A stretch of 64,000 nt of DNA from Candidatus Bathyarchaeota archaeon. GTDB lineage: Archaea; Thermoproteota; Bathyarchaeia; Bathyarchaeales; Bathycorpusculaceae. The stretch is taken from assembly GCA_963702095.1 (NCBI GenBank), contig OY969706.1, positions 2,528,001 through 2,592,000 of the forward strand. The letters are read 5' to 3'. Position 1 is the stretch's first letter; every line of letters begins with the position of its first letter. Made by a program: the position numbers and the translations under genes. Below are positions 15,970 to 54,527 of this stretch, in pieces. Under the pieces are notes generated by a model, which did not search any database, was not told the DNA's origin, and saw only the letters and a program-made list of their open reading frames with translations.

Positions 15970-16452
15970 ATGAACCAACAAACCCCGCCCCTACTAACCT
16001 ACCTCGAAAGCAAAGGCATCACTCTCCAAAGCCTCATTGACTGTGCCTTGGAAATGTATGTTCCCCACCCAGGAATAGAAACCGTCGAAAAAGCCACCGA
16101 AATGCTCAAAGAAGAATTCCTCGACGCCCTAAACGACGTAAACGTATCCATTTTGGAGTGGGCAGCATTCCATGCACAGGAAGACGCAGAAAACGGCTTA
16201 ATCCCCGGCTTAACCCAGGAACGCTTCAAGGGCAGACCAGGCCCAATTTCAGACGAGATCTTGGGGATAGCCATCGCCACCTACATCGGCGGAACCCGAG
16301 GCGTCTTCGAATACGTCCGTTTCGACCAAGCCAAACCAGGCATCCTCAAAAGCTTAGGCTCCATCACCAACGATGCCATAGGCGCTTTAGTCGCTGGTGT
16401 ATCCTCCAACGTCTACACACGTGCAATAAAGAGCGCTGGCACAACCTGCTAA
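15970..16452 (+). CDS. CobZ/PgpA-family phosphatase (alpha-ribazole-phosphate or lipid-phosphate phosphatase)
   Basis: D.NV, DEILG, YIGGTRG.FEYVRFDQAKPGIL as in archaeal CobZ; the C-terminal DD appears as ND. Confidence 0.75.
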   Translation: MNQQTPPLLTYLESKGITLQSLIDCALEMYVPHPGIETVEKATEMLKEEFLDALNDVNVSILEWAAFHAQEDAENGLIPGLTQERFKGRPGPISDEILGIAIATYIGGTRGVFEYVRFDQAKPGILKSLGSITNDAIGALVAGVSSNVYTRAIKSAGTTC

Positions 16453-16508
16453 GGGTTTTTCCGTAAATTATAATACCTCCGCGGTTGAGGGTTAATCGTT
16501 GGCTTCCC

Positions 16509-17666
16509 ATGGCTAAAACTCGGCTCTGCATCGTCACCCACACGTTTCTGCCCCATGTCGGCGGCATAGAAATAGTGACCAACGAACAGAGCAAACGGCT
16601 GCTACACAAAAACTATGCGCCCATGGTGGTTACTAACAGGATTGGGACGCCGCGGAGTTATGTGGTTGATGGGGTGCCTGTAGAATGTTATGAATCCCTA
16701 AACACCGGCTTTCGCTTAGGCATCCCCTACTCTATCCCAACAGTGCCCAGTTTCCCAACTTTTGCTAAAGCGGTGAAATCCGCCAAAATCGTTCATGCCC
16801 ACGGCCACCCCTACCTGACCTCGCTAGTCGCGGGCAAACTCGCCAAGTTCTACGGCAAACCCTTCGTCTTAACCCAACACAACACCTACATCGAATACAA
16901 CAACATCTTCAACCAAGTAGAACTCTTAAACGACCTATCCGTGGGCAAACAGAACCTAGCAGCCGCAGACAAAATCATAACAATCAGCAACGCCACCAGA
17001 GACTACGTGTTGAGGTTGGGGGCAGACCCAAACAAAATCAAAGTCATCTACAACGGCGTCGACCTCGCCAGATTCCGAGTCATCGCAGGGAGGAAACAGG
17101 AGATGCGAAAGAAACTGGGCATACCCCAAGAGGCTGTGGTGGTTTTGACTGTGCGTAGACTTGTTTACAAGAATGGCATCGACAACCTCCTTGAATGCGC
17201 CAACATCGCCATCGAAAAGAACCCCAAAATCGTGTTTGTGGCAGTGGGTAAGGGCCCCGACTTGGAAGGTGTCCGGGCGCAGGTTGCCCAGTTGGGGTTG
17301 ACAGGCAATTTCAGGTTAGCGGGTTTTGTCAGCGACGAGGATTTGCCTTCGTACTATAATTTGGCGGATTTGTTTGTGTTGCCTTCCAAGTCCGGTGAGG
17401 GTTTGCCGCTTGTGGCGTTGGAGGCGATGGCATGCGGGTTGCCAGTGGTAGCTACTAACGTGGGCGGCATCGGCGAGATTCCCGTTAGAGAGTTCGGCAA
17501 GTTGGTTCCGCCTAACCAGCCCCAACAGCTTGCGGGAGCGGTCTTGGAATTCGCAGCAGGTGACTTTTCGCCCCGTAAAGCAGAGCTAAGAGCTAGGGTG
17601 GAGGAGCGTTTTAGTTGGGATGCTAACGTTGAGCGACTTGTCGAAATATACGAAGAGCTTATTTAG
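16509..17666 (+). CDS. GT4 family glycosyltransferase
   Basis: PHVGGIE, HAHG, NGVD, EGLPLVALEAMACG; ATG at 16509 preferred. Confidence 0.92.
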   Translation: MAKTRLCIVTHTFLPHVGGIEIVTNEQSKRLLHKNYAPMVVTNRIGTPRSYVVDGVPVECYESLNTGFRLGIPYSIPTVPSFPTFAKAVKSAKIVHAHGHPYLTSLVAGKLAKFYGKPFVLTQHNTYIEYNNIFNQVELLNDLSVGKQNLAAADKIITISNATRDYVLRLGADPNKIKVIYNGVDLARFRVIAGRKQEMRKKLGIPQEAVVVLTVRRLVYKNGIDNLLECANIAIEKNPKIVFVAVGKGPDLEGVRAQVAQLGLTGNFRLAGFVSDEDLPSYYNLADLFVLPSKSGEGLPLVALEAMACGLPVVATNVGGIGEIPVREFGKLVPPNQPQQLAGAVLEFAAGDFSPRKAELRARVEERFSWDANVERLVEIYEELI

Positions 17667-17713
17667 CCATGTAACGGAAACAATATAGCTCTCTATACGG
17701 AATGTAGCAACTG

Positions 17714-18454
17714 ATGACGTCAAAAGTTGAGATGGTTTCGGTCGTCATTCCGACACTCAACGAAGCCGGAACCATAATGGAAGCCATAGATACAATCGAG
17801 AAGTACGTTAGTTACCCAAAGGAAATTATTATTGTCGACGGGAACTCAACGGATGGCACACTGGAGAAAGTAAAAGACTGTGAGCGTTGCCGACTCATCG
17901 TTGAACCCAGACGCGGCTACGGCGTCGCGTTGAGAACCGGCATGAAAGCCGCCAAAGGCAACATCCTAATTATGGTTGATGCCGACGGCACCTACGAGTT
18001 CAAACACATCGACCGCCTAGTCAGCCGCTTGATAGAAAAAGACGCGGACATGGTTTTAGCCACCCGAATGTATGACCCCAACAAAGCCATGGGGTTCCTC
18101 AACTTCTTAGGCAACAAAGTCATCACCTTTACCTACGACTTCTTCTACAGCCAATTCTTAAGCGACACTCAATCCGGTTTTCGGGCAATCGACCGCACAA
18201 AATATGACAGTGTACGGTTCAAGGAAACCGACATGCCCTTTGCCACGGAGATGCTTATCCAATTTGCCAGAGAGGGCTACAACATGGTAGAGATTCCCTC
18301 AACGTATAAACCTCGAATGTACGGTGAAACTAAGCTTAGACCGTTACAGTCGGGAATCAGAATTTTTACCACTATATTTAAGGGGTTCTTGGATGCTAAG
18401 ACGTTTAGAGTCTGCTATGCACATTGGAAGAAGAATCGGTATAAGCGACGATAA
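17714..18454 (+). CDS. GT2 family glycosyltransferase (polyprenol-P-sugar synthase-like)
   Basis: SVVIPTLNE, VDGNSTDGT, GYG.A, DADG, DTQSGFRA. Confidence 0.9.
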   Translation: MTSKVEMVSVVIPTLNEAGTIMEAIDTIEKYVSYPKEIIIVDGNSTDGTLEKVKDCERCRLIVEPRRGYGVALRTGMKAAKGNILIMVDADGTYEFKHIDRLVSRLIEKDADMVLATRMYDPNKAMGFLNFLGNKVITFTYDFFYSQFLSDTQSGFRAIDRTKYDSVRFKETDMPFATEMLIQFAREGYNMVEIPSTYKPRMYGETKLRPLQSGIRIFTTIFKGFLDAKTFRVCYAHWKKNRYKRR

Positions 18455-18929
18455 AGGCTACTTTGTTCCAGTTCTTATCGCTTTGATAGTTGTTGCCTCC
18501 ACAGTCGCAGGCTTCTACATCTACTACAACGTGGTTTCTGCTAAGCCTTCGCCTTACAACACGATTTTTCTCCTCGACGCCCAAGAACAAGCCACAGATT
18601 ACCCCCAAACCCTCGTTGCAAACCACAACAGCACCTTCAGCCTAAACGTTGGAGTAACCTGCCATGAAGGCAAAGCCGAAAAACAAAGCTACCAAGTACA
18701 GATAAAAGTAACCCAGAACCTGCCAGCCACTTTCCCAATGCAGACGCCACCCACCCAAACCTTTAACCTGAGCCTAAAAGACGGCGACACACAGGTGACC
18801 AAAGTCACCCTCACAGAGAACACTGTAGGAAACTATGCGGTGATCTTTGAACTCTACAAGTTGGACGATTCGGGGAATTTTGTTTTTACTCAGGATTACT
18901 GTGTGCTGCCCATACAAGTCGTCAGTTAA
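18417..18929 (+). CDS. DUF1616-like membrane-anchored protein
   Basis: One N-terminal TM helix, then LL...A.DYP and an Ig-like beta domain; start approximate. Confidence 0.65.
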   Translation: MHIGRRIGISDDKGYFVPVLIALIVVASTVAGFYIYYNVVSAKPSPYNTIFLLDAQEQATDYPQTLVANHNSTFSLNVGVTCHEGKAEKQSYQVQIKVTQNLPATFPMQTPPTQTFNLSLKDGDTQVTKVTLTENTVGNYAVIFELYKLDDSGNFVFTQDYCVLPIQVVS

Positions 18930-20298
18930 TTCGATTTTGTTTGCCTTTGCGCTTGATAGCATAGAGGAATAGAACAGCAAATACCCCAACAACAGCCACT
19001 ATAAGAAAGGGCAAAATCCATTCCGACAAGTTTGACGGATTATTCGGTGGCTGCGTCGGCGCTTGAGTGGGCTCTACGAAGGCGGGGATTTCAACCGGTG
19101 CCGCAAGTGGATAGTGGTCTATGTTGAGGCGTACTTGACTGATAAGGTATGCTTTGCCAGCTATGCCGTCGTGGTTGTTGTCAACTGTGGCGGAATCGCT
19201 CCAGTAGTTGCCTTCTCCATCGCTGTCCCAGACGTGTATACCGTTGGGGAGGGGTTTATAGTTGTATTCATGCCAATCCGTAGAATGCACTTGCTGGATG
19301 TTGTTGATGAGGTTGTTGCGGTAGATGACCTGCGCTGACCCAAGCAAGGATATGCCGACTTCGTTGTTTTCTATGGTGTTATTGGTTATAGTGTTGGCTT
19401 GTTCTGCGGTTATGACGATGCCGTGTGTGCCGTTTGCGAGGTAATTGTCGACGACTAGGTTGCCGTAGGAGTTGTAGAGGTAGATGCCTGCCCAAAGATG
19501 GGTGAAGTGGTTGTGGGTGATTGTGGAGTTTGTGGTGTTTTTTAGGATAATCCCGCTTGAGGGCCCGCTTATGGGGGCGGGGGCATCGTCTATCCAGAGG
19601 TCTTTTACGGTGACGTTGATGCAGCCTTGGAGTGCTAAGTAACCGATTTCAGGGTGGCTTTTACGGTCGATAACTAGGTCCTTCTGGTTGATTATGTAGT
19701 AGATGGGTTTACCGTCAATGGTGTTTGAGGTGTCAACATCGTTAGAGAAATCGTCCCCCTCGAGACTTATAATAAATGTACTGTTGACAAACCTGTTATC
19801 CCTAAATACGTTACCTGAGGAAACGTGAAAGCCCACGCCAGGTTTAGCGTCAACAAAAACGTTATCAGTTATAGAATTACCCATTGCACCTCTGAGCCAA
19901 ATTCCCGCCTGACAATTCAGGGTGCAGCCAGTGATAGTGTTGCCTGAGCTCTCAAGCGAGATAACGCTGCCAAACCCTTTGACATTGAGGTTTTTGATTG
20001 TAACTCCACCTACCCCGTTAAGCAGAATTATTGCCTGCGGTGGGTCTTCAGATAGACTGCCTCTGAGAGTGTAACCGGCACCATCAATGACTATGTTGCC
20101 TTTCTCAACCCTTATTGTGTGACTAATGTCGCCGGTAAAAGTGTACGTGTTGCCGTTGCGGTGCAGCTTATCGGTGCCTGTGATTGAGCCGTCGGCATTT
20201 ATAGTTAAAACTTCGGGAGGTTGAGCACTGACATAAAATGGGAGAAGAAAACACAAAAGCGCTAAAGCCAACGTTAACACTAAAACTGTTTTCTTCAT
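18922..20298 (-). CDS. NosD/CASH-like right-handed beta-helix surface protein
   Basis: Signal peptide, INADGSI..T, GIxL/N-T-I repeats, GNYWSD, DHYPL, Pro-rich linker, C-terminal TM plus basic tail. Confidence 0.85.
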   Translation of the reverse strand: MKKTVLVLTLALALLCFLLPFYVSAQPPEVLTINADGSITGTDKLHRNGNTYTFTGDISHTIRVEKGNIVIDGAGYTLRGSLSEDPPQAIILLNGVGGVTIKNLNVKGFGSVISLESSGNTITGCTLNCQAGIWLRGAMGNSITDNVFVDAKPGVGFHVSSGNVFRDNRFVNSTFIISLEGDDFSNDVDTSNTIDGKPIYYIINQKDLVIDRKSHPEIGYLALQGCINVTVKDLWIDDAPAPISGPSSGIILKNTTNSTITHNHFTHLWAGIYLYNSYGNLVVDNYLANGTHGIVITAEQANTITNNTIENNEVGISLLGSAQVIYRNNLINNIQQVHSTDWHEYNYKPLPNGIHVWDSDGEGNYWSDSATVDNNHDGIAGKAYLISQVRLNIDHYPLAAPVEIPAFVEPTQAPTQPPNNPSNLSEWILPFLIVAVVGVFAVLFLYAIKRKGKQNRIN

Positions 20299-21683
20299 TA
20301 CGCCAACCCTCCAGCGGCACTGTGGCTTTTGGGTTTACGTTTTGCTCTGTAAACCACAAATGCACCAATGGCTATGGCAACGGCACCTGCAATTGCAATC
20401 AAGATGGTCGTTGTCGGATAGGGCTGAGGTGACTCTGTGGCTGGCACCGGTGTTTGAATGAATTCCAGAGTTACGACTGGCTTTGCAAGAGGATAATTGT
20501 CTACATTGAGGCGACGTCCTGTATTGAGCACATAAGCTTCATCGCATATTCCGTCGCCGTCAGCATCGGTTGCATTGATTCCGCTCCAATAGTTGCCGCC
20601 GGAGGGGTAGCCGTTATCCCAGACGTGAACGGCGTAAGAAGGAGGGAGGCGGTTAAGGGGGCTCCAGTCGGCTGAATCTACCTGCTTGGTGTTGTTGAGG
20701 AAATTGTTGTGGTAGATGATCTGGTTTGACCCCGAAATGTATAGGCCGACTTTGTTGTCTTCGAAGGTGTTGTTGGTGATTGTGTTAGCGGTGGTCCCGC
20801 TGATGGCTATGCCGAATTCTTGGTTGTCCTTGAGATAGTTTTCTGTGATGATGTTACCGTATGAATCGGTGCTGCTGATGCCTTGCCAGAAGTTTGTGAG
20901 TTGATTGTGGATAATCGTTGAGTTGGATGTGCCCTTCAAAATTAATCCTATACTTGCTGCTGAACCGGAAAGTTGAAGGTCCCTAACAGTCATGTCGACG
21001 CAGTTTACTAAGGCAAGGTATCCGATTTCTGGGTAATCTTTGGGGCTGATGACTAAGCCGCTTTGGTTAACTATGTAGTAGATGGGTTTGCCATCAATCG
21101 TGTTGGAGGGGTCGATGTCGTTGGGGTTTGTGTCGAGTCCTGTGGAGATTGAGCTGTTGATGAATTGGTTGTTTCGAAGTTGATTGCCCGAGGAGTCGCT
21201 AAAGCGGACGCCTGAATTGAGATTTATGAAAACATTACCTTTGATGATGCTGTCTGTGGCTTCGTTTAGCCATATGCCCGAGGAGCAATCTTTTATGGTG
21301 CAGCCGAGGACAGAGTTGTCTTTGCCTTTTAGCGTCATGCCGCCCACAAAATCTTTTATGTTGAGGTTTTTTATGGTGACTCCGTGGATTTCTCCTGAAA
21401 GGAGCAGAAGCCCTGTGCCTTTAGCTTCCACCGTATTATCGGGTTTTACAGTGTAGCCTGCGCCGTCGAGTACGATGTTGCTTCTTCCAATCCTAATTGT
21501 GTAGAGAACATCGCCGGTAAGGCTGTAAACGTTGCCGTCGCATTTGATGTTGGATGTGCCCGATATGGAGCCGTCGCTGTTGATGTTGACAGCCTCCACC
21601 GAGGGCACGTAAAACACAAAGGAAGTGAAAGCCAACAAGCCAGCCAGCATCACAGCCAAACATCTGCTACGCACCGCTGCCAC
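20298..21683 (-). CDS. NosD/CASH-like beta-helix surface protein
   Basis: Paralogue of 18922-20298 (shared SNTIDGKPIYY..NQ...PEIGYLAL); WDNGYPSGGNYWS; C-terminal TM. Confidence 0.85.
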   Translation of the reverse strand: MAAVRSRCLAVMLAGLLAFTSFVFYVPSVEAVNINSDGSISGTSNIKCDGNVYSLTGDVLYTIRIGRSNIVLDGAGYTVKPDNTVEAKGTGLLLLSGEIHGVTIKNLNIKDFVGGMTLKGKDNSVLGCTIKDCSSGIWLNEATDSIIKGNVFINLNSGVRFSDSSGNQLRNNQFINSSISTGLDTNPNDIDPSNTIDGKPIYYIVNQSGLVISPKDYPEIGYLALVNCVDMTVRDLQLSGSAASIGLILKGTSNSTIIHNQLTNFWQGISSTDSYGNIITENYLKDNQEFGIAISGTTANTITNNTFEDNKVGLYISGSNQIIYHNNFLNNTKQVDSADWSPLNRLPPSYAVHVWDNGYPSGGNYWSGINATDADGDGICDEAYVLNTGRRLNVDNYPLAKPVVTLEFIQTPVPATESPQPYPTTTILIAIAGAVAIAIGAFVVYRAKRKPKSHSAAGGLA

Positions 21684-22539
21684 CTCGCCGTGTCTTCTTA
21701 ACTATCAAAAGGACAGCCGCAACCAATGCCACGGCAACGACAGGCAGCACAACATAGTAGGGATTGATTGGCGGTTGATTCTGTGGTGTACCTGTTGGGA
21801 AAGGGTCTGGTGAGTATGCGCGGGTGAGGAGTTTTGTTCGGGGGTGGTTATCTTGGCAGTTCTCGTTAATGACGTATGGGGTGTCCCATATGGCTGAATC
21901 GCCGAGTTGTTTGGCTTGCGGATACCTTGTGGTGTAGTCGCTCCAGTAATTCATATCCAGTACGGGTGGAGCTGATAGCCAACCCTGTATTGAGCAGTTT
22001 ACGAAGTCGTTGTTTGTGATTTCACTTGTGCCTGCATAGTTAATTGCTATGCCAGCTTTTTCCAAGCTGTTAGAGGATATTGTGTTGTTGAAGCTGCCGA
22101 TAATCCATATGCCGTCAATACAGTTTTTAATGGTGTTACTGCGGAAGGTGTTACTGTTGGTGTTGGCGATGTTTATGCCATAGTAAAAGTTGCTGATTGT
22201 TAGGTTAGCAACTGTTATGTTGTCTATTTCTGTTCGGGTTGGGTCCTGTCCTCTGCCGTTTGAAAGGTCCACTCCGAAGCCTTCACCGTTTCCCTCTATA
22301 CCAAACCCAGCGCCGTCCAAGACAATGTTACTTCTCTGGATGGATATGCCGCCTGAAATGTTGGCGGTTAAGGTGTAGATGTCTCCTTCGCGTTGGATGC
22401 TGCTGGTTCCTGTGACTGAGCCGTCAGGATTAATGATTATGCCTGTGTTGGATTGGGCGGTTGCGGGCTCAAAAAGGGCGACACATAGGGCAAGGGCAGA
22501 CAGCAGTATGAGCGTTAACGTTAGGGCGGGTTTTGGCAT
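21667..22539 (-). CDS. NosD/CASH-like beta-helix surface protein
   Basis: Signal peptide, INPDGSVTGT, NYWSDY, C-terminal TM; overlaps the next gene. Confidence 0.83.
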   Translation of the reverse strand: MPKPALTLTLILLSALALCVALFEPATAQSNTGIIINPDGSVTGTSSIQREGDIYTLTANISGGISIQRSNIVLDGAGFGIEGNGEGFGVDLSNGRGQDPTRTEIDNITVANLTISNFYYGINIANTNSNTFRSNTIKNCIDGIWIIGSFNNTISSNSLEKAGIAINYAGTSEITNNDFVNCSIQGWLSAPPVLDMNYWSDYTTRYPQAKQLGDSAIWDTPYVINENCQDNHPRTKLLTRAYSPDPFPTGTPQNQPPINPYYVVLPVVAVALVAAVLLIVKKTRRGGSGA

Positions 22540-22920
22540 GGAACTTCAGAGTATCGCTGACGTTGGCGGTTATAATGGGTTTTCGTCAAGAAACCTTGAC
22601 TAACAATGCGGCAGCAACGAGCAGTTTTGGCGAAGTTGGCTAAACAAAACGCTGTGGGGGTTTGTGAAAAAAAAACCAGATGGTGCATGCTTTCACACAC
22701 ACATCCTGACCCCTTCAACATGAAGCCATGTACCGCGTGTGGAGAAAAACACCGCTCCCAAACCATAACAGCCGCGTAAAATAAGTTGCAGACCCAAAAA
22801 GCAAACGTCTTCTCAAACAGTCTTGTGGCCCCCGTAAAACGCCACACCCACATAAAGAGAAGAAAACAATCTTTCTATAAACAGGGGAGTGGGAGAGGTT
22901 GGCAAAGCGACAGTTGCCGC

Positions 22921-46004: not shown

Positions 46005-46007
46005 CCC

Positions 46008-46103: not shown

Positions 46104-46940
46104 ATGAAAGTCGCCGCTATGTGGAGCGGGGGAAAAGACAGTTCGCTCGCCACCTACGATGCCACCCTGCAGGGGCACACAATCACCGACATCGTCAGTT
46201 ACAGCTACAAAGGAGCGGCGCAAGCCAACCCCAACATGCCTGTGAGCCCATTGAGCCGCATTTTTAGCACTGTCGGACGTGCGGCGCCAAGCATCTTCGC
46301 TAACCTTGCAAGCGTCATCTACGGCAAAGACCTAAGCACCATGATACCCCACGAAGTCGCCCCCGAAATCATCCAGAAACAGGCAGAGGCATTTGATGTG
46401 CCCTTGGTTCAGGGGGAGGTCAGATGGGACACAATTGATATGTTCCTAAAAATCAGCATCCGCAGGCTTAAAACTAAAGGGGTGGAAGGTTTGGTTTTTG
46501 GAGTTGCTCCCCCAACATTCCCGTTGGATACAAGCGAGAAGCTCCGGGAATACCAGACTTTGGTGGCGCATAAGGAATGGATGAACCGCATCTGCCACGA
46601 ATTAGACGTGAAACCGATGACGCCGCTTTGGGAGAGCACCCCCGACCAGATATTAAGGGACCTCATCGCCAAAGGCTTCGAATCAATAATTATAGTTGTG
46701 GACTCGAAGTATTTCGGTGAGGAATGGTTGGGACGCAAAATCGACAAAGACTTCCTCGACGCCGCCTACAAGCTGCAAAAGGAGAAAAGCGTGCATATCG
46801 GAGGCAGCGGCTACCACACGCTGGTTTTGGATGCGCCGATGTTTAAGAAACGCCTAAAAATCCTCAAGAGCCGCAAGGTTTGGAAGCGTGGCTACGGCGT
46901 GCTCGAAATTGAAAGGCTTGAACTGGTGGAGAAACAGTAA
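46104..46940 (+). CDS. divergent Dph6-family PP-loop ATPase
   Basis: MWSGGKDS, PLW, WLGR, YHTLV.DAP.F; about 35-aa insertion and loss of GEGGE. Confidence 0.75.
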   Translation: MKVAAMWSGGKDSSLATYDATLQGHTITDIVSYSYKGAAQANPNMPVSPLSRIFSTVGRAAPSIFANLASVIYGKDLSTMIPHEVAPEIIQKQAEAFDVPLVQGEVRWDTIDMFLKISIRRLKTKGVEGLVFGVAPPTFPLDTSEKLREYQTLVAHKEWMNRICHELDVKPMTPLWESTPDQILRDLIAKGFESIIIVVDSKYFGEEWLGRKIDKDFLDAAYKLQKEKSVHIGGSGYHTLVLDAPMFKKRLKILKSRKVWKRGYGVLEIERLELVEKQ

Positions 46941-46984
46941 AAGCAGCAAATCCAATTTTGCTCGCTCTTTTACGCGATTTTTTG

Positions 46985-46997: not shown

Positions 46998-47039
46998 CTG
47001 TTTCTCAGTATATTTGTCGAAATTGACTCGGGGCTCTGT

Positions 47040-48488
47040 ATGTCGAGGGTGGATAAGAAAAACGTGAAGGTAGCATTAGTTAACCCACCGATCACGGAGG
47101 GCACTTTCCGCCACCAACTCTACCTTCCGATGGGACTCGCCTATTTAGCGGCGGTTTTGGAGCAAAACGGTGTCGAAGCCAAAATCATCGATTGCCAAGC
47201 CCTCTACATAGATCACCAGCACCTGAAGTCGGAGTTAAGCCGTTTCCAACCCGACATTGTCGGCGTAACTTCGATTGCGCCATTGATGAGCTCCGCCTTG
47301 CAATCAGCCAAGGCAGCGAAAGAAGCTTTGCCCGGCGTCGAAGTCGTCATGGGCGGACCCCACGCCACCTTTATGGACGAGCAAATCATCACCGAACAAC
47401 CCTCTGTGGATTTGATTGTGCGGGGCGAAGGCGAGCAGACCCTGCTTGAAATCGCCCAGTCCTTAGGCGACCGCTCTAAACTCCACACAATAAAAGGCAT
47501 CACCTTCAAAGAAAACGGCAAAGTCCAGCGCACCCCAAACCGCCCCTTCATCGCAGACTTAGACTCACTGCCGCGGCCAGCCTACCACCTCTTTGACCTC
47601 GACAAGTACCGCCTCTTCGGCAAACGGTTGCTGCCAGTCATCACCAGCCGAGGCTGCCCCTTCCAATGCAACTTCTGCGTCGCCACACGCATGTTCGGAG
47701 CCCAGTACCGCATGAGAAGCGCCGAAAACGTCCTCGACGAGTTAGAATGGCTCAAAAACACGCATGGCGCAGAAGCCTTCACCTTCTATGATGACACATT
47801 AACGTTTAACAAGGAACGTCTCTTCAAAATCCTCGATGGCATGAAGAGCCGAGGCATTAATTTGCCCTGGGACTGCCAAACCCGAGTCGATCAGGTTACG
47901 CCTGAGGTTTTGGCGCGGATGCATGCGGCAGGCTGCGAGCAAGTCTTTTTCGGCGTCGAATCAGGCTGCCAAAAAATCCTCAACGCTATAAGCAAAAAAA
48001 CCCGCGTTGAACAAAACGAGAAAGCCATCAAAATGGCCAAAGACGCAGGCCTCTTCGTCACCATCTCACTCATCATCGGCTATCCAGGCGAAACTCAGGA
48101 CACGCTGCGAGAGACGTTGACGTTTGTGAAGAAAACCAAACCCGACGACGTCTATGTCTGCGTAGCCACACCCTTCCCCGGCACCGAACTCCGAGCCGCC
48201 GTGGAGCGCAACGGCTGGAAAATCTCCGACAACTTCGACTGCTTCGACACCATGACACCAGTCTTCGAAAACCCAGAGTTATCGCTTACACTCGAAGAAA
48301 TCAAAACCTTCCGAGAGCAATTCTACGACAGCATCTACTCCCCAAGCTACGTGGTACAGCACCTACTAAGGCGCAACACGTACAGCCGCATGATGGCAAG
48401 AACAGCAGCAAACCACATACTATGGCGATTAAAGTCTGCGAGAAAACCCAAAAAAGCTGCCTCAGCAGAAGCTTCACCCACTGCCTAA
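47040..48488 (+). CDS. cobalamin-binding radical SAM protein #4
   Basis: LVNPP, PMGLAYLAA, GGPHAT, RGEGE, RGCPFQCNFC, GVESG, TPFPGT. Confidence 0.93.
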   Translation: MSRVDKKNVKVALVNPPITEGTFRHQLYLPMGLAYLAAVLEQNGVEAKIIDCQALYIDHQHLKSELSRFQPDIVGVTSIAPLMSSALQSAKAAKEALPGVEVVMGGPHATFMDEQIITEQPSVDLIVRGEGEQTLLEIAQSLGDRSKLHTIKGITFKENGKVQRTPNRPFIADLDSLPRPAYHLFDLDKYRLFGKRLLPVITSRGCPFQCNFCVATRMFGAQYRMRSAENVLDELEWLKNTHGAEAFTFYDDTLTFNKERLFKILDGMKSRGINLPWDCQTRVDQVTPEVLARMHAAGCEQVFFGVESGCQKILNAISKKTRVEQNEKAIKMAKDAGLFVTISLIIGYPGETQDTLRETLTFVKKTKPDDVYVCVATPFPGTELRAAVERNGWKISDNFDCFDTMTPVFENPELSLTLEEIKTFREQFYDSIYSPSYVVQHLLRRNTYSRMMARTAANHILWRLKSARKPKKAASAEASPTA

Positions 48489-48499
48489 AGTTTTACTGT

Positions 48500-49633
48500 T
48501 TATTGGCTAGGTTTTCGGCAGCTAATTATGACTGCGAAAAGTAATGCAACCGCAAGCAATGGCAAGATTGTCAGTCCTGAGAACTCAGGAACAGAAACGG
48601 GTGCTTGTGGAGTGTTTATATCAACTGGTTCCGTCAGTGGGTAGTGATCTATGTTATAGTTTGGTATAGCATGAGCACGGTCAATGTTATCAATAGCTAC
48701 TCCGTAAGGAGTATCTGCAACCCCATTTTCGCCGCTTGACGCTTTGGGATATTTTGTTTGGTAATCACTCCAATAATTACCAAACCTGCCATTATCCCAA
48801 GAATTGGCAGCGGTTCCCAAAACTAAACCGTTCTGTGAATTGCCAATTAGATTGTTAAGGTAAAAGCTGTTGTGTTTAGCGTCAATCATCACCCGAATGC
48901 CAACGCCTGGCCAGACGCGGTTACCTGTATTGTTTCCTATGTTATTCCAATAAACGGTATTATCGTGTGAGTTTGAAATAACGATGCCATACTCATTTGA
49001 ATCTATACTGTTGTTATAAATACGGTTGTAGTTACTTGAATCTAAAACGATTCCTGTACCTTCAATCCCTGAATTATTGGTTATGGTGTTGTAGTAGATG
49101 TTGTTGTTGCTTGATCTCTCAGATTTAATGCCAACACCGCTGCTCATTATAGTATTTCCGTTAATGTTTATGTCTGAAGTGTTGTCAAGGTAGATGGCAT
49201 AGCCTTCAAAGCCAATGCCTTTGAAGCCCATATAATCGTAAGGAATATCGTGAAAATTTCTAATATTCGTGTTAGTGATGGTAACGTTGTTGATCTGGTG
49301 TAAGTTGAATCCAGTTGACCCAGTCCAGTTCCAGTCAAATGGATTCGCCAAAGTTGACGTTTCTAAATTAACGCTAAACCCGTTTCCATCGATCACTATA
49401 TTGCTGCACTCTACTATTATAGAGCCATAAATGTCTCTCGTTAAGAAATAGGTGCTCCCAACTTTTTGTATGGGAACGGAACCGCTGTTGGGGTTTATTG
49501 TACCGTTGGCGTTGATAACAATAGTTCCTTGGATAGTTTGTCCTTTTACTGAAGCGTTTGGTGTAAAGATTAGTGTTAGGCAAAAGAGAGCCGCTATAAG
49601 AATAAAAGTAAAAGTCTTAGCGCCTTTTCTCAT
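48500..49633 (-). CDS. NosD-like beta-helix surface protein with PEF-CTERM-type tail
   Basis: Signal peptide, INANG, Asn-rich repeats, GNYWSDY, DHYPL, VPEF+TM+basic tail; visibly AT-rich. Confidence 0.85.
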   Translation of the reverse strand: MRKGAKTFTFILIAALFCLTLIFTPNASVKGQTIQGTIVINANGTINPNSGSVPIQKVGSTYFLTRDIYGSIIVECSNIVIDGNGFSVNLETSTLANPFDWNWTGSTGFNLHQINNVTITNTNIRNFHDIPYDYMGFKGIGFEGYAIYLDNTSDININGNTIMSSGVGIKSERSSNNNIYYNTITNNSGIEGTGIVLDSSNYNRIYNNSIDSNEYGIVISNSHDNTVYWNNIGNNTGNRVWPGVGIRVMIDAKHNSFYLNNLIGNSQNGLVLGTAANSWDNGRFGNYWSDYQTKYPKASSGENGVADTPYGVAIDNIDRAHAIPNYNIDHYPLTEPVDINTPQAPVSVPEFSGLTILPLLAVALLFAVIISCRKPSQ

Positions 49634-49641
49634 AATTAGTT

Positions 49642-49866
49642 TTAGCGACCGTTTGTGATAAAAGGTTTCCGAAAAAGAGCTTTTGACTGGTTAACACTTA
49701 ATACTATTCTCCTCTTGCTACGAATAAGCACTATCGTCATCAAGGGTATAACTACAAACAAAAGTAAAATCACAGCATTAATGGAAAACTCTGAAACAGT
49801 GGTCGAAGGAGCCACTGAAACTTGAGGTTTCAGGATGTTTACTGTTATTGAAAAACAGGGTTTGAT
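49642..49866 (-). pseudogene. orphan C-terminal fragment of a PEF-CTERM-type surface protein
   Basis: Startless frame reads ...ITVNILKPQVSVAPSTTVSEFSINAVILLLFVVIPLMTIVLIRSKRR...; in-frame stop immediately upstream. Confidence 0.55.
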
Positions 49867-49922
49867 AAGTTAGTATTATTGGAAACCCTCACTAGCGCTG
49901 ATGCATAGCATTGTATAACGGT

Positions 49923-50480
49923 CTATACAGTCTTTTTTAGTAGCTTAACCGTAATCAGTGTAACTCCGACTGCACATACAATGGCTCCAACCAGCAGAGC
50001 CCAGTAACCTAGCAACGGAAAATTCACAAGCATAGTGAACTGCTTTGGCCCATGCCAGGATTTAGTTGCCATTATGAGTACGTCTTTGGAGGCGCTGTCA
50101 AAACGGTTGTCGAACACGAAAAAATAGCTTCCGTTTTGAGGAACAGTCCAGTGTAGAGTCACATTTGGGGTTCTGCTATAGAAATGGTAGGTTGTTGTGT
50201 TGTCTTTGATCCAGAAGTCTACTTTGGCACCCAGAGACCGATTTGATTGAGGCTGCGTGATAACTCCGTTGATATTCAAATCATCGTTCTTGCTTAGATT
50301 CAACATGTAGCTTGCCATATCAGACCCTGGAAGTTCAAAAGCTTTGTTAAGCGCAAGGTCTGTTTGGGGCGTATCATTAGTGAAAGACTGCCAACGTGGA
50401 ATAGGGATGGCTGATAAACTTGCCACTACAATTCCTGCAATCAATAGTGCGATACCGAGGACGAGCGGGGCATTTTTCAA
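49923..50480 (-). CDS. membrane protein with GOLD/emp24-like beta domain
   Basis: N- and C-terminal TMs, G.Y.FVFDN...SK motif. Confidence 0.65.
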   Translation of the reverse strand: MKNAPLVLGIALLIAGIVVASLSAIPIPRWQSFTNDTPQTDLALNKAFELPGSDMASYMLNLSKNDDLNINGVITQPQSNRSLGAKVDFWIKDNTTTYHFYSRTPNVTLHWTVPQNGSYFFVFDNRFDSASKDVLIMATKSWHGPKQFTMLVNFPLLGYWALLVGAIVCAVGVTLITVKLLKKTV

Positions 50481-50572
50481 GGTTGACCATTTGAGGGGAA
50501 GCTTGTTTATGTATTAGAGACTTTCGGCACTTGTTAAATGCCAAGTTATGGCTTGTTGTATTGGAGATTGGT

Positions 50573-50713
50573 ATGTGGGTTTGCGCTAAATGGGGGTTTA
50601 AAGCTGAAGATAAATTGGCTAAGTGCCCAAAATGCGAGGGTACAAGCTGGAAAGAGGAGCCGGTTATGAAGATAGCGACGAAGAAGGTTCCGGCTTTTAA
50701 AACCCGCCGATAA
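50573..50713 (+). CDS. small rubredoxin-like Zn-ribbon protein
   Basis: GGAG RBS then MWVCAKWGF...CPKCEG; the first knuckle is CxxW instead of CxxC. Confidence 0.55.
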   Translation: MWVCAKWGFKAEDKLAKCPKCEGTSWKEEPVMKIATKKVPAFKTRR

Positions 50714-50719
50714 GATTGC

Positions 50720-50842
50720 GGCTTGCTGCACAACCAGCCTGCAACACAAACCAAACGCTGACGCAAAAAAGCAACCGCCTACACAATTGATTGGTTGTTG
50801 TTGTGTATAGGGGGTTTTCTGCAACAACTACTATAGAAAAAA
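50720..50842 (-). repeat. dispersed ~130-bp intergenic repeat, subfamily A copy
   Basis: Reverse complement ttttctatagtagttgttg-N18-caacaacaacca-N48-tgcaggctggttgtg; between convergent genes. Confidence 0.9.
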
Positions 50843-50861
50843 GACTTTTCTGTAAAAGGGG

Positions 50862-51942
50862 TTACTTGGGATAGTACCCGACAACCTTCAGGAATGCCTT
50901 TGTGAAGGAGCTTCTGCCATACTTCACATGGATAACCTGCAACATTTCCTTGATTGGAAACATAAAGTTGGCTGTCTTGTTTAGTTCATGGAAGGGTTTG
51001 CCCTTGAATTCGCCGTAGTTGTGGATGTAGAAAAGCATCGCCTGCTTCCGCGAGTAGAAGTGGGGAATATAGTTTTCTACGCCATATCTTCGGCAGACCC
51101 TGTCGAAGCGCACGTAGGTGGCGTAGAGGTATGATTCATCCATGTTGCCACAGGACGGAGCTAGTGGCCAGCCCCTCATAGAGGTAACTGTATTTCGACA
51201 GCAGCGGCTCCTGGCGGCACCGCAGAAAGTTCTTGAAGCGGTCCGTGCCACGCATGTCAAGCATACCGGTTAAAACGAATTGGGCGCCGGCTTTAGTTGC
51301 GGCTTCAATAACCCCCGACATGTTCTCTTCCGTGTCAGTCACGTAGGGGATAAGTGGAATCATCCAGAGCCCAACCGTTATGCCCCTATCCGACAGCGCC
51401 TTTATGACTTCAAGCCGCCTTTTGGGGGACGGCGCGTTTGGCTCCAAGGTTTTAGCTAATTTCTCGTCAAGCGTGGTTATGGTTATGGCGACGCAGCACC
51501 AGGATTTCTTAGACGCCTCCTCTAAAAGGTCGATGTCGCGTAGGATAAGGTCGGATTTGGTGCCGATGGCTATGGGCCAGCCGTTTTTGTTTAGGATTTG
51601 CAGGATTTGCCGTGTAATTTGGTATTTCTTTTCGGCTGGCTGGTAGGGGTCGGTGCTTAAGCTGAGCCGAACGACGCCTTTGCGTTTAAACTGGGAAAAC
51701 TCGTGAGCCAACACTTTTGGCGAGTTGGTCTTGGCGAAGACTGGAACACTGAATTCTTTGCAGCCCTCGAACTTCTGCGCTGCTGTGTGGCAGTAGAGGC
51801 AGTTGAATTCACAGTTGTTGTAGGGGTCAAAGCAGTAGCTTGCATAGAACTGGGTATTTAACAATCCAAAGGTGCCCAAGACACTTTTGCACTTGACTTC
51901 TTGATACTTTGGCGGTTCTGTGGACATTAAATCCCTTCCCAA
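50862..51942 (-). CDS. SplB/Rv2578c-like radical SAM protein (frameshifted at the C4 run near 51173)
   Basis: DPYNNCEFNCLYC, TDPYQPAE, TKS.LI.RD.D, LEP.AP.P..R; C-terminus continues in ORF 50862-51260. Confidence 0.82.
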
Positions 51943-51997
51943 ATCATAGATTAAACCTTATTAACTTTAGCTGTAAACTGCAATGGTTTCGGTGTGG

Positions 51998-53443
51998 TCA
52001 TGGTTTTCCCAGCAGAAACTTTACGGCTCTCTTGGGATCCCGGAATGCTTTGAGCACCTTCTCCGAAGTGATGGCATGGTTGATTAAGTGAGCTTTAGCG
52101 CAGAGTTCGCGGACCTCTTGGGGGGTGAAGTCGGGGGTTTCAATCAGCGGCTCCACCTCAGCCAAACTGGAATCACTAAACGTTTCCTTTAGGTAGCCGC
52201 CTTTGACGGCTTGGTCGTAGAGTTCAGTGCCATAAACAGGCATAGCAATACTGAAGTAGAATCGGTCAGCGCCGAGTTTACGCAGTTTGTAAGCATATGA
52301 GATGGTTTGGTTCATTTCATCCTTGGTTTCCCCGATGAGTCCCATCACAAAGAAGCAGCCCACTCTTATGCCGACTTTGCGGGCTAAAACCACAGCGTTC
52401 TCCACGTCGCTGAGCTTCTGGTTCTTTTTGATGACTTGGTCGACAACACGTTGCACGCCTGATTCTGGGGCGACACGGATTTTTTTGCAGCCTGACGCCT
52501 TCATTTTCCTCAGCAACGGTTCGTCGAGGGTGTCGGCGCGGACTCCGTTGGGCGTAAACCACTCGATGTGGAGGTCTTTTTTCACTATCAAATCAAAGAT
52601 TGCCGCCGCCCTTTTCGTGTCAAGGGTCATGTTGTCGTCGAAGAAGTCAATCTGCTTCACCCCATAAGTGTGGACTAACTGCTCGATTTCAGCGACCACA
52701 TTTTGGGGGCTTCTGCCACGCCATGTGCGTCCCATGACGTTGTGGATGGTGCAGAAGACACATTGGTTGGGACAGCCTCGGCTGGTTATCATCATGGACC
52801 ATGGCTTGCTTATTTCGCCTCGCAGAGGGTTTTCTTTGACCGCAGCAAAGTATTCTTTCATGGGCAAGAGGTGTCTTGCGGGGAAGGGCAAGCTGTCTAA
52901 GTCTTTGATAAGCGGCCTCGGCGGTGTGAGCATGGTTTTTCCGTCTTTAACAAAACCAAGTCCCCGAACGTCTGCGGGGTTTTTGCCCTGCTCCAGCGCA
53001 TCTGCGAGTTCGGCGACTGTCTGTTCGGGTTCGCCGACCACGGCAAAATCGATGTTATGGTCCTCAAGGCACTCTTTGGGCCGCACAGACGGATGCAATC
53101 CGGTCAATAGGGTTGTGGTGTCTTTGTTGACCTCTTTAACAGCTGAGATAACCTCGTTTATTGAGATCCACCAGCCCGAAAAAGGCACCGTCACGCCAAC
53201 CATGTCAGGCGACCACGCTTTAACTTTGGCGGCGATTTCCTCGTTACACAAGCCCTGACGGTACTTTAGTCCGCCGATGTCTTCGAGGTTCCGCCACCCC
53301 TCTGTTGGCGCGTCAATAACTTGGACTTTATGGTTTTTTTCGAGCACCGCTGCTATGTACGCTATTTCGAGCGGTTGAAAAACGCTGGGTTTGCCCCAGA
53401 GTTTGGGGTGAATGCGGGGTGGATTGATGAGACAAACACGCAT
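51998..53443 (-). CDS. cobalamin-binding radical SAM protein #5
   Basis: LINPP, PLEIAYIAA, GLHPS, GEPE, SRGCPNQCVFC, DDN, PNGVRAD, APESG. Confidence 0.92.
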   Translation of the reverse strand: MRVCLINPPRIHPKLWGKPSVFQPLEIAYIAAVLEKNHKVQVIDAPTEGWRNLEDIGGLKYRQGLCNEEIAAKVKAWSPDMVGVTVPFSGWWISINEVISAVKEVNKDTTTLLTGLHPSVRPKECLEDHNIDFAVVGEPEQTVAELADALEQGKNPADVRGLGFVKDGKTMLTPPRPLIKDLDSLPFPARHLLPMKEYFAAVKENPLRGEISKPWSMMITSRGCPNQCVFCTIHNVMGRTWRGRSPQNVVAEIEQLVHTYGVKQIDFFDDNMTLDTKRAAAIFDLIVKKDLHIEWFTPNGVRADTLDEPLLRKMKASGCKKIRVAPESGVQRVVDQVIKKNQKLSDVENAVVLARKVGIRVGCFFVMGLIGETKDEMNQTISYAYKLRKLGADRFYFSIAMPVYGTELYDQAVKGGYLKETFSDSSLAEVEPLIETPDFTPQEVRELCAKAHLINHAITSEKVLKAFRDPKRAVKFLLGKP

Positions 53444-53531
53444 CTGTGGGGTACACGCTCTTTCGGTGCCGAGGTTACGGGAAAAAGGGTGTTGCCGCGA
53501 TTAATAGCTTCCGAAAAAACTCGCCCTGCAC

Positions 53532-54527
53532 TTAGATTGGGAAGAAGAACAGCCGAGTGAACACCAACACAGGCAAAAACAAAAGCACACACAGCACAAT
53601 TGTCATGTCGCGGATTTTTAGCGCCTCGAGGATTTTGTCGCCCGTTAAGGGTTCGTCGGGGTCGCCTAAGATGTATCGGTCAGGTTTCACCAGTTGCACC
53701 CGCAAAGCACCTGCCGTTGCCGCCATGGGCCAACCGTGGTTTCGACTCTGCGTTTTGCCGTTGTCCCGCTTCGCAATGCGCCAAGCATTCCTGTAATCAT
53801 AACGCAGAAGCGCCGCTGAAGCAACTATCAGCAGTGCGGCTAGGCGCGTGGGGATATAGTTGACTACTGTGTCTAGGGTGGCGCTGAACCAGCCTGTGTT
53901 TATGTGCTCTGGGTCTTTGAAGCCCACCATGCCGTCGAGGGTGTTTATGGCGCGGAACGCGATGGCGCCTGTGACTCCGAAAAGCGAGAACGAAATTATC
54001 GGGGACATTTTAAAGTCGATCAGGTTCTCAGACATGGATTCGATGATGGCGGAGCCCATTTGCTGGGCGTTTAAGTGGCTTGAATCACGCCTTGAGAAGT
54101 GAGCATATTTTTTGGCTTCTTGGGCGTCATTGGAGTCGATGGCTTTTGCAGCTGCTTTTGCCCAGTCAGTTTCCAGTTTTATGCAGATGGTGGCTTTAAG
54201 CAGGATTATGCCTATGAAGGCATAGAGGAAAATGCTCAAGGCGGCTACGGTGATGTAGCTGCGGATTGCCCACAGCACCAAAAAAGTGGGCACAGCAAAA
54301 ACAGCAATCACTGTTAAGCCCAAGAGTACGCCTAGGAACTTTTCGGTTTGGGGGTTGGGGTTTTTGAAGGCGGGCTCGATTTTTTTTGTGAAATTACCCA
54401 TCAAAACCGTTGGGTGCAACTTGAACAGTAGGCGGTCGGGGTTGTTGGGGGATGGGTCGCCAAGAATGAGGTCTAGTGCTATTGCGAGAACCAGCATGAC
54501 GATGGCGACCAACACGTCTGTTAGCAA
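53532..54527 (-). CDS. cbiB: adenosylcobinamide-phosphate synthase CbiB
   Basis: LD..LGDP, HP, ES.SEN, INTLDGMVG, LD.V.NYIP.R, N.GWP. Confidence 0.85.
   Translation of the reverse strand: MLTDVLVAIVMLVLAIALDLILGDPSPNNPDRLLFKLHPTVLMGNFTKKIEPAFKNPNPQTEKFLGVLLGLTVIAVFAVPTFLVLWAIRSYITVAALSIFLYAFIGIILLKATICIKLETDWAKAAAKAIDSNDAQEAKKYAHFSRRDSSHLNAQQMGSAIIESMSENLIDFKMSPIISFSLFGVTGAIAFRAINTLDGMVGFKDPEHINTGWFSATLDTVVNYIPTRLAALLIVASAALLRYDYRNAWRIAKRDNGKTQSRNHGWPMAATAGALRVQLVKPDRYILGDPDEPLTGDKILEALKIRDMTIVLCVLLFLPVLVFTRLFFFPI

Follow-up and report, generated by a model that had tools for sequence, protein, structure and literature searches.

A conserved bathyarchaeial gene cluster combining a second tetraether synthase, radical SAM enzymes, glycosyltransferases and cobamide genes

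We analyzed a 64,000-nucleotide stretch of DNA (the window) from a Candidatus Bathyarchaeota archaeon (assembly GCA_963702095.1, contig OY969706.1, chromosome positions 2528001–2592000) that contains a candidate gene cluster for tetraether lipid tailoring. The genome is a single contig of 2.94 Mb and is 90% complete. The window holds this genome's copy of a supercluster that is old within Bathyarchaeia and comprises five modules. The first is an operon for a sugar epimerase, a UbiA-type prenyltransferase and a second tetraether synthase (Epim-UbiA2-Tes2), and the second is a Gms-type radical S-adenosylmethionine (SAM) enzyme with a SPASM domain, coupled to a DUF362 protein. Two blocks of glycosyltransferase (GT) genes with small membrane proteins form the third module. 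B12-binding radical SAM enzymes (B12-rSAMs) from four old orthogroups make up the fourth, together with a fusion of an aldo-keto reductase with a ferredoxin (AKR-ferredoxin) and a SAM-dependent methyltransferase. The fifth is a complete second set of genes for the cobamide nucleotide loop (CbiB2, CobD2, CobY2 and CobS2), next to canonical cobT-cobS-cobY genes and a CobZ-like gene. A role in lipid tailoring is the best reading of this arrangement.

An initial annotation had described positions 15970–54527 of the window as an island for tetraether biosynthesis and tailoring with cobamide support genes. Scans with Pfam and NCBIfam, which covered 41 open reading frames (ORFs) in this interval, recovered every item of that gene list at or near the position assigned to it (Table 1). 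Absent from the initial list were four NosD genes, the PQQ-repeat fragments, HepT, a Dph6-like gene, a small radical SAM gene, DUF1616, DUF6693, four frameshifts and a canonical cobT-cobS-cobY operon just outside the interval; it also did not recognize Tes, UbiA and the cob genes of the island as divergent second copies. Scans of the window for Rfam families and tRNAs gave no match.

To assemble a linkage set, species-representative genomes were scanned with a diverse alignment of Gms-like proteins, and the best 80 of 569 relatives were used. Every one of these 80 species loci belongs to Bathyarchaeia (44–94% identity), and 39 of them have full 10-kb flanks around the Gms-like gene; all counts out of 39 refer to this subset. 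These counts overstate independence, because the loci are kin and were picked by similarity to the Gms-like gene. The DUF362 gene, GT4b, GT2b, GT2c, DUF6693 and CobD are each found in 36 of the 39 loci, and a CobS of either type in 35. Epim follows with 31, Tes2 and UbiA2 with 29 each, GT4a, GT2a and DUF1616 with 23 each, B12r1 with 22, the methyltransferase with 16 and the AKR-ferredoxin with 15. Among all 80 loci, the CobZ-like gene occurs in 25, the Dph6-like paralogue 2 in 21, and CobT near the cluster in 11.

The usual gene order begins on the left with CobT< Dph6L< / CobZ> GT4a> GT2a> DUF1616> / Tes2< UbiA2< Epim<, continues with CobS2> CobY2> Gms-like> DUF362> / GT4b< GT2b< GT2c<, and ends on the right with DUF6693> CobD2> / B12r1, AKR-Fer4, MTase (< and > give the direction of transcription; MTase, methyltransferase). 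In a genome from another genus (G307) the cluster is compacted to 15.5 kb. In a genome from another family (G040), 19 cluster genes lie within 31.5 kb at 25–64% identity: CbiB2, B12r1, B12r5, B12r2, B12r3, the methyltransferase, Gms-like, GT4b, GT2b, GT2c, DUF6693, CobD2, CobY2, CobS2, Tes2, UbiA2, Epim, DUF1616 and GT4a. The clustering that the initial annotation had claimed is therefore real and is kept across families of Bathyarchaeia; that annotation had named a lack of conserved linkage in relatives as an argument against itself, and since the linkage is kept, the argument fails. The grouping also exceeds chance, because five of the 12 full-size B12-rSAM ORFs of the 2.94-Mb chromosome lie within 12 kb and the linkage is conserved in relatives. 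With these observations the gene grouping is confirmed, and we regard the existence of a conserved supercluster as practically certain.

Table 1. Features of the cluster, its inserts and its left flank, in window coordinates (bits, profile score; cutoff, model threshold).
Feature	Position	Strand	Basis
CbiQ and two ABC ATPases (energy-coupling factor or cobalt-type transporter), left flank	7377–9826	-	Pfam CbiQ, ABC_tran x2
cobY1	11925–12545	-	TIGR00454 148 bits (cutoff 174.7)
cobS1	12536–13330	-	TIGR00317 145.1 bits (cutoff 110), Pfam CobS
cobT	13332–14420	-	TIGR00303 416 bits (cutoff 240)
Dph6-like PP-loop ATPase paralogue 2, upstream of cobT	14430–15098	-	Pfam Diphthami_syn_2 155 bits
CobZ-like alpha-ribazole phosphatase	15970–16452	+	TIGR03161 127.6 bits, E 4e-37, full length
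GT4a, block A	16485–17666	+	Pfam
GT2a, block A	17714–18454	+	Pfam
DUF1616 membrane protein, block A	18324–18929	+	Pfam
Three NosD/beta-helix genes (NosD1-3) and a doubtful 110-aa ORF	18922–22853	-	Pfam
Tes2, divergent second tetraether synthase paralogue	22921–24480	-	Pfam Zn_ribbon_HMPTM + Radical_SAM, NF045702
UbiA2, DGGGP-synthase-like prenyltransferase paralogue	24477–25508	-	Pfam UbiA 119 bits
Epim, NAD-dependent sugar epimerase/dehydratase (short-chain dehydrogenase/reductase, SDR; GalE-like)	25379–26323	-	Pfam Epimerase 187 bits
CobS2	26363–27211	+	TIGR00317 107.1 bits (cutoff 110), Pfam CobS
CobY2	27190–27822	+	TIGR00454 123 bits (cutoff 174.7)
Two PQQ-repeat fragments, variable insert	28063–29462	-	Pfam PQQ_2; 6/80 loci
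Gms-like radical SAM/SPASM	29662–31090 (ORF stop at 30945)	+	Pfam radical SAM + SPASM
DUF362 protein	31100–32056 (ORF here 31268–32056)	+	Pfam DUF362 143 bits
HepT-like toxin, insert	32074–32415	-	Pfam HepT-like; 2/80 loci
GT4b, block B, frameshift-split near 33281	32779–33976	-	Pfam
GT2b, block B	33976–34965	-	Pfam
GT2c, block B, AglJ-like	34967–35671	-	Pfam, NCBIfam
DUF6693/DUF4234 membrane protein	35755–36309	+	Pfam
CobD2, threonine-phosphate decarboxylase-like	36293–37411	+	TIGR01140 275.2 bits (cutoff 290.55)
FwdD/FwdB-like molybdopterin pair, insert	37531–39506	+	Pfam
AKR-ferredoxin fusion, frameshift-split here	39523–40618	-	Pfam Aldo_ket_red + Fer4
Class I SAM methyltransferase, downstream of B12r1	40619–41452	-	Pfam Methyltransf_11
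B12r1, B12-binding radical SAM, own orthogroup	41502–42863	-	Pfam
B12r2, B12-binding radical SAM	43001–44455	+	Pfam
B12r3, B12-binding radical SAM	44598–46004	+	Pfam
Dph6-like PP-loop ATPase paralogue 1, between B12r3 and B12r4	46104–46940	+	Pfam Diphthami_syn_2
B12r4, B12-binding radical SAM	47040–48488	+	Pfam
NosD4, three small ORFs and truncated PA0069/Rv2578c-like radical SAM; insert	48500–51942	-	Pfam, NCBIfam
B12r5, B12-binding radical SAM, own orthogroup	51998–53443	-	Pfam
CbiB2, adenosylcobinamide-phosphate synthase	53532–54527	-	NF002281 275 bits (cutoff 273), TIGR00380 216.8 bits (cutoff 165.9)

The Tes2 operon and the Gms-like radical SAM enzyme

Tetraether synthase (Tes) couples two archaeol tails to form a glycerol dialkyl glycerol tetraether (GDGT) or macrocyclic archaeol. 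Genes for archaeal lipids are usually scattered; the canonical Tes1 of this genome (chromosome 2848269–2849894), for example, has no lipid genes among its neighbors. Tes2 and Tes1 are 36–39% identical. On the equivalog model NF045702 Tes1 scores 668 bits; Tes2 just passes (455 bits, E 2.7e-136, cutoff 450). The structure 7tol aligns with residues 3–484 of Tes2 (E 1.5e-108), and this alignment shows that Tes2 keeps the zinc ribbon, the CxxxCxxC motif and the auxiliary-cluster and C-terminal cysteines. The initial assignment of this gene as a Tes was therefore sound. Tes2 orthologues (75–90% identity) are found in complete, partial or split form in 22 of the 24 genomes of the genus; for the other two genomes, completeness is 58% and 65%. 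Among 16 genomes from other families of the order, a Tes2-like copy was detected in G040 only (45%).

UbiA2 scores 161 bits with PRK12884 and 159 bits with PRK12882, neither of which reaches its cutoff (269–296 bits), and with a further score of 107 bits it fails all NCBIfam cutoffs for digeranylgeranylglyceryl phosphate (DGGGP) synthase (269–353 bits). Another UbiA protein of the same genome (L001) scores 232 and 181 bits, above UbiA2 yet also below the cutoffs. Judged by these profiles, UbiA2 is less DGGGP-synthase-like than its paralogue. It carries the sequence NDYFDRESD, which fits NDxxDxxxD, the first Asp-rich motif of UbiA proteins. The stop codon of UbiA2 overlaps the start of Tes2, and its true start is probably Met43 (near 25382), abutting the stop of Epim. 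Epim, the first gene of the operon, scores 175 bits with the GalE model (cutoff 262). Given this arrangement, translational coupling of Epim, UbiA2 and Tes2 is most likely. The CobS2-CobY2 pair is transcribed divergently from the Tes2 operon, and the two units are adjacent in 10 of 10 relatives, one of which belongs to another family. That Tes2 and UbiA2 act on lipids is, in our judgment, quite probable. A relative has, in addition to its canonical Tes, a 493-aa ORF (G084:C8:39373–40305) that covers positions 1–314 only of the Tes model (312 bits) and may be a TrsS-like relative.

Proteins of the family to which the Gms-like protein belongs are about 475 aa long and have an additional domain at the N-terminus. 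Li et al. (PMC11186832) describe Gms as a six-helix N-terminal domain followed by a radical SAM and a SPASM domain. An AlphaFold2 model (predicted local distance difference test score 83) of the orthologue from G307 (61% identical) has the same order, with six N-terminal helices (residues 4–16, 18–27, 38–46, 59–74, 79–86 and 89–105) leading into a radical SAM barrel and a SPASM domain, so that the Gms-like call of the initial annotation agrees with the published domain order. A Foldseek search with the Gms-like model returned PqqE and SuiB as top matches, which reflects the generic SPASM fold. The SPASM cysteines are kept in 14 orthologues; the copy in the window has CxxCx5CxxC within its final ~55 codons, and these are out of frame. 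Of 301 sampled Thermoproteota genomes, 154 encode full-length members of this protein family; the 43 genomes of one taxonomic family (f18) encode none. When 1.84 billion representative sequences were searched with the family profile, the 10 mid-scoring matches that were looked up carried only names of metagenome-assembled genomes (MAGs), Promethearchaeota and Theionarchaea. In a search aimed at named Gms, Gmm or Grs sequences, the homologous proteins listed were all close bathyarchaeial relatives.

According to Garcia et al. (PMC11214058), gmm is often clustered with gms. This pattern reappears in four of 14 more distant loci, where a B12-rSAM gene lies directly beside the Gms-like gene, and this neighbor is most similar to B12r2, B12r3 and B12r4. 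We consider it reasonably likely that the Gms-like enzyme is a lipid cross-linker. Its downstream neighbor encodes the DUF362 protein, with which a sequence search of the PDB gave no match. In two relatives (L086 and L082) the start of DUF362 overlaps the Gms-like stop by 11 nt, and by this overlap DUF362 is predicted to be translationally coupled to the Gms-like gene in relatives.

Other variants of these genes were also seen. At L119:9977–12388 the Gms-like and DUF362 genes form a single 803-aa ORF (Radical_SAM, partial SPASM, DUF362), which may be a natural fusion or an artefact of an insertion or deletion (indel). The 956-aa protein P0129 is a member of the Gms-like family split by a LAGLIDADG intein, and recalls the intein-containing Tes model of NCBIfam. 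The right flank of the window contains a second radical SAM/SPASM gene (60359–61450, 363 aa) without the N-terminal domain.

In NCBIfam, the Gms-like protein comes closest to AhbD and NirJ, which are tetrapyrrole enzymes (241 bits against a cutoff of 500). BchE is the best match of B12r1, B12r3 and B12r4, and ChlG appears among the matches of UbiA2. Such matches, in genes embedded among cob genes, would suit a cluster whose enzymes, the methyltransferase included, tailor a corrinoid or another tetrapyrrole and not lipids or, as a variant, carry out Bza-type tailoring of the lower ligand. We judge this explanation highly improbable. All of these matches are far under their cutoffs and represent generic superfamily neighbors, and Tes2 is clearly a Tes. 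The low scorers of AhbD/NirJ type in the profile search begin at profile position ~125, that is, without the N-terminal helical domain that the Gms-like family possesses. Finally, no ThiC/BzaF family gene and no BzaD above cutoff were found in the genome (90% complete).

B12-radical SAM enzymes, glycosyltransferases and duplicated cobamide genes

In all five B12-rSAMs of the window (453–484 aa), a B12-binding domain precedes the radical SAM domain. B12r2 and B12r3 are 62% identical. A maximum-likelihood tree was calculated from 22 sequences, with Gms-adjacent B12-rSAMs of distant genomes as proxies. B12r1 groups with the copies from G040 and G307 (support 100/100) and B12r5 with the copy from G040 (100/100); B12r2 and B12r3 have orthologues in both genomes, and B12r4 is sister to the B12r2/3 clade (99/100). 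Since the G040 cluster contains a separate orthologue for each of B12r1, B12r2, B12r3 and B12r5 (support 99–100), the five genes are not recent tandem copies. The link between B12r1-5 and the Gms-adjacent enzymes is supported below 80 in this tree, with the deep nodes unresolved. In BLAST comparisons, B12r3, B12r4 and B12r2 are the closest proteins of this genome to the Gms-adjacent B12-rSAMs of distant genomes (263–368 bits).

None of the five proteins passes any NCBIfam cutoff; the top matches are BchE, HpnJ, ApyD and Sden_1168. A PDB sequence search returned AprD4, CysS, OxsB and TokK, and a search of the ESM Atlas with B12r3 led only to clusters of the generic "B12-binding radical SAM" type. 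TIGR04190 was tried as a proxy for Grs, but no protein of this genome or of the control Sulfolobus acidocaldarius exceeded its cutoff; because of this outcome in the control, we conclude that TIGR04190 is not the Grs family. A B12-rSAM lies within 10 kb of the Gms-like gene in only 23 of the 39 loci. In three genomes (G014, G022 and G040) B12r5 adjoins CbiB. On this evidence, an action of the B12-rSAMs on lipids is a tentative assignment, a little less probable than its opposite.

The Dph6-like paralogue 1 scores 125.5 bits with the archaeal Dph6 model TIGR03679 (cutoff 197). Paralogue 2, upstream of cobT, scores 125 bits with the same model, and the two proteins are 27% identical. A third, weaker homologue is located at chromosome position 423878.

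The initial annotation had assigned lipid glycosylation to the five GTs, which PDB and NCBIfam matches do not bear out. The GTs match generic families only (in the PDB, generic GT4 and GT2 enzymes for GT4b and GT2b), and no lipid acceptor is indicated. GT2c is most like AglJ, an enzyme of N-glycosylation. We regard an action of these enzymes on lipids as possible, somewhat less likely than not. A second copy of GT2c, 88% identical, is found near chromosome position 714257.

The properties of the B12-rSAMs and GTs would also suit a neighborhood centered on cobamides, in which finishing genes accompany B12-rSAMs that act on non-lipid substrates, such as lignin-derived aromatics, and in which the GTs glycosylate proteins or the S-layer. 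The lipid genes would then be limited to Tes2-UbiA2 and possibly the Gms-like gene, linked to the rest incidentally. Real cob family members are spread through the whole region, GT2c is AglJ-like, and surface-type genes (DUF1616 and NosD) adjoin the GTs in the window. The B12-rSAMs pass no family cutoff and are not joined to the Gms-adjacent ones by any resolved node of the tree. According to one study (PMC11697101), a Bathy-6 MAG carries 7–20 B12-rSAM genes, for which the authors propose a function in lignin metabolism; neither "lipid" nor "tetraether" appears in the main text of that study. However, the linkage of Tes2/UbiA2 and the Gms-like gene to one and the same group of cob and GT genes persists from family to family, which makes a chance association implausible. 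B12r2, B12r3 and B12r4 are nearest to Gms-adjacent B12-rSAMs of distant genomes that have no cob genes nearby, and the NosD genes are not conserved (0–2 of 80 loci). We consider this explanation rather unlikely.

The cobamide genes themselves form two sets. The canonical cobT-cobS-cobY operon (11925–14420, minus strand) lies just left of the interval first annotated. With this operon and a CbiQ/ABC transporter on the left, the cobamide neighborhood is wider than that interval, although the transporter is, by its position, only possibly part of it. CobT is the single copy in the genome. The CobZ-like protein is under the TIGR03161 cutoff of 152.5 bits and scores only 18.6 bits with Pfam PgpA. 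Inside the island, CobS2 and CobY2 are 31–34% identical to CobS1 and CobY1. CbiB2 passes both of its equivalog cutoffs; CobS2 and CobD2 narrowly miss theirs. A higher-scoring cobD-cbiB pair lies 1.36 Mb from the island: its CobD (chromosome 1167382–1168614) scores 291.0 bits on TIGR01140, and its CbiB (1168616–1169602) scores 334.8 bits on NF002281 and 283.9 bits on TIGR00380. By these scores CobS2, CobY2, CobD2 and CbiB2 constitute a divergent, lower-scoring second set, and the cobS, cobY, cobD and cbiB calls of the initial annotation refer to genuine family members or near-members.

This duplication extends beyond the present genome. One high- and one low-scoring CobS were found in five of five other Bathyarchaeia genomes tested, and the low-scoring copy lies inside the cluster in all three genomes for which coordinates were compared (G040, G332 and G333). 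Two CbiB copies are present in three of the five. CobD2, CobY2 and CobS2 remain beside GT4b-GT2b-GT2c-DUF6693 even at ~40% identity. Together with the lower scores of all four duplicated enzymes and the single-copy CobT, this pattern would fit a second loop set that, with the GTs, builds a dedicated cofactor variant (with another linker, or with a sugar or lipid attached to its tail) for membrane-associated B12-rSAMs. Alternatively, the same phosphodiester logic could be applied to a lipid head group. In the most far-reaching form of this idea, a special cobamide with an altered or a sugar- or lipid-anchored tail would serve as cofactor for lipid-tailoring B12-rSAMs that form a membrane-bound assembly line, and the cluster would encode an unusual tetraether pathway plus its own special cofactor. 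We consider each of these proposals improbable. CbiB2 is above its equivalog cutoff and CobS2 and CobD2 are just under theirs, two of the five genomes (G334 and G335) have a single CbiB, and in L085, L088 and L126 a canonical-type CobS1-CobY1 pair occupies the same site before the Gms-like gene.

Inserts, frameshifts and flanking genes

Five NosD/right-handed beta-helix genes are distributed across the window (three at 18922–22539, one at 48500–49633 and one at 54818–55981). NosD1, NosD3 and the 110-aa ORF are found in none of the 80 loci and NosD2 in two. NosD4, two small ORFs (hyp185 and hyp132) and the small radical SAM gene of the 48500–51942 block are each absent from all 80; the 129-aa ORF of this block (50377–50766) was outside the query set. 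Because the four queried NosD genes (the one at 54818–55981 was not queried) are absent or nearly absent in relatives, we read the NosD genes as a suggested lineage-specific expansion or insertion. The FwdD/FwdB-like pair is 63–68% identical to a pair at chromosome 1762197–1763118 onward. The initial annotation had taken it for a redox partner of the island; its absence from all 80 related loci speaks against that role. From this distribution we regard the NosD1-4, PQQ, HepT and FwdD/FwdB genes and the 48500–51942 block as lineage-specific inserts outside the conserved cluster. The right flank (54818–63763) contains a NosD-like gene, an amidohydrolase and two large PQQ/beta-propeller repeat proteins (850 and 741 aa).

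Frameshifts in the window affect four conserved genes, which encode the Gms-like protein, DUF362, GT4b and the AKR-ferredoxin (breaks at 30929, ~31100–31270, ~33281 and 40058–40293). The 5' end of DUF362, and with it the N-terminus, is visible in another frame. In most relatives the same genes are intact: 67 of 70 loci encode a Gms-like protein of at least 450 aa, 53 of 61 have GT4b as one ORF, and 16 of 20 have the AKR-ferredoxin as one ORF of 361–385 aa. The breaks in the Gms-like gene and GT4b are indels, each a single-base insertion relative to the nearest relative (L157). The frameshifts could be assembly errors or real decay; that a closed contig is rated only 90% complete may point to indel errors. 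Among public sequencing runs, one DNA run contained 0.05 of the sampled words, and no RNA run was listed.

A lipid-tailoring reading and its relation to known systems

If the cluster tailors lipids, UbiA2 and Tes2 would produce a specialized second pool of membrane-spanning ether lipid, and the Gms-like enzyme, with DUF362 as a partner, would cross-link the chains of that lipid. The B12-rSAMs, with the AKR-ferredoxin as their reductant, would perform C-H chemistry of the Gmm, Ted or Grs type (methylation, desaturation or cyclization) on the chains or the backbone. The GT blocks, supplied by the epimerase, would attach sugar head groups, and the cob genes would finish the cobamide that the B12 enzymes require. 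We infer every substrate and product in this scheme, and clustered tetraether tailoring with its own cobamide supply has, as a whole, just short of an even chance of being correct. The interpretation given in the initial annotation is thus supported in part, namely for the clustering, the Tes, the Gms-type architecture and the cob genes; no support emerged for the fwdDB partner, for lipid acceptors of the GTs, for a grouping of the five B12-rSAMs with Gmm, Grs or Ted, or for a connection to butanetriol and pentanetriol dialkyl glycerol tetraethers (BDGTs and PDGTs). A review (PMC12694404, citing Dong et al. 2025) ties BDGTs to another lineage, Baizosediminiarchaeum, and in a 2026 review of lipid radical SAM enzymes (PMC13459092) the terms BDGT, butanetriol and Bathyarchae do not occur.

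Several points weigh against the lipid-tailoring reading. Apart from the kinship of the loci, the likeness of these proteins to Gms, Gmm, Grs, Cgm and Ted was judged by published descriptions instead of validated sequences. The genome G033 (97% complete, from the same order) has two full-length Gms-like genes and no Tes by hidden Markov model (HMM) search (E<=1e-30), and none was found by HMM in G025 or G028 either. To these we add the sub-threshold AhbD/NirJ and B12-rSAM profile matches, the weakly supported tree nodes, the incomplete linkage of the B12-rSAMs, the generic GTs and the AglJ-like GT2c, the lignin proposal and the four frameshifts.

The value of the locus is real and lies in the candidates that it offers, with function predicted throughout. 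Bathyarchaeia are abundant and uncultured, and their lipids serve as sediment biomarkers. A class-wide neighborhood of ~20 genes would provide a candidate list for the unassigned tetraether modifications of this class, comprising Tes2/UbiA2, the Gms-type enzyme with DUF362, four B12-rSAM orthogroups, five GTs and the methyltransferase. The class-wide duplication of cobamide loop genes near B12-rSAMs also raises the question of cofactor specialization.

Parts of this picture are already known, namely the presence of Gms and multiple Gmm homologues in Bathyarchaeota and the existence of small tailoring clusters. For Bathyarchaeota, Garcia et al. (2024, PMC11214058) report 188 sequences of Gms and 307 of Gmm, individual genomes carrying several copies of "Gmm2". 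Tailoring clusters published so far contain two to three genes (PMC11214058; 10.1101/2025.10.20.683597). Among the papers listed in literature searches, none describes by title or abstract the supercluster, the operon of Tes2, UbiA2 and the SDR, or the duplication of the loop genes, and the passages searched in some of them contained nothing on these. The gms-gmm-grs cluster of Thermococcus guaymasensis (PMC11214058) similarly links a radical SAM/SPASM gene of the cross-linker type with B12-rSAM genes. The present island is far larger, and adds a second Tes, UbiA, SDR, DUF362, five GTs, the AKR-ferredoxin, the methyltransferase and a second cobamide loop set.

The ted-hgs-grs locus of Ca. Bathyarchaeota B1_G15 (10.1101/2025.10.20.683597) provides a bathyarchaeial B12-rSAM that acts on GDGTs and was found through the co-location of lipid genes. 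The same study shows that divergent Gmm homologues are capable of chemistry other than methylation. It filtered Ted homologues from BLASTP at a length of at least 500 aa, and reports that ted overlaps a gene for an AttH-like hydratase. The B12-rSAMs of the island, by contrast, are shorter than this filter, and a search for AttH/CrtC (PF07143) across the genome (90% complete) gave no match.

Tes2 is a full-length homologue of the tetraether synthase GDGT-MAS MJ0619 (PDB 7tol and 7tom) and has the same motifs, but it is a second copy, forms an operon with a UbiA paralogue and an SDR, and is confined to part of Bathyarchaeia. All six families of the archaeal nucleotide-loop genes (cobT, cobS, cobY, cobZ, cobD and cbiB) are represented here, with CobT, CobS1 and CbiB2 passing equivalog cutoffs. 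Here, four of these genes occur twice, and the lower-scoring set is interleaved, class-wide, with lipid-type and GT genes. Loci for pdu, eut and reductive dehalogenases likewise place cobamide-finishing genes beside the enzymes that require the cofactor; in the present cluster, class B radical SAM enzymes are the candidate consumers, and the genes that would supply them belong to a duplicated set.

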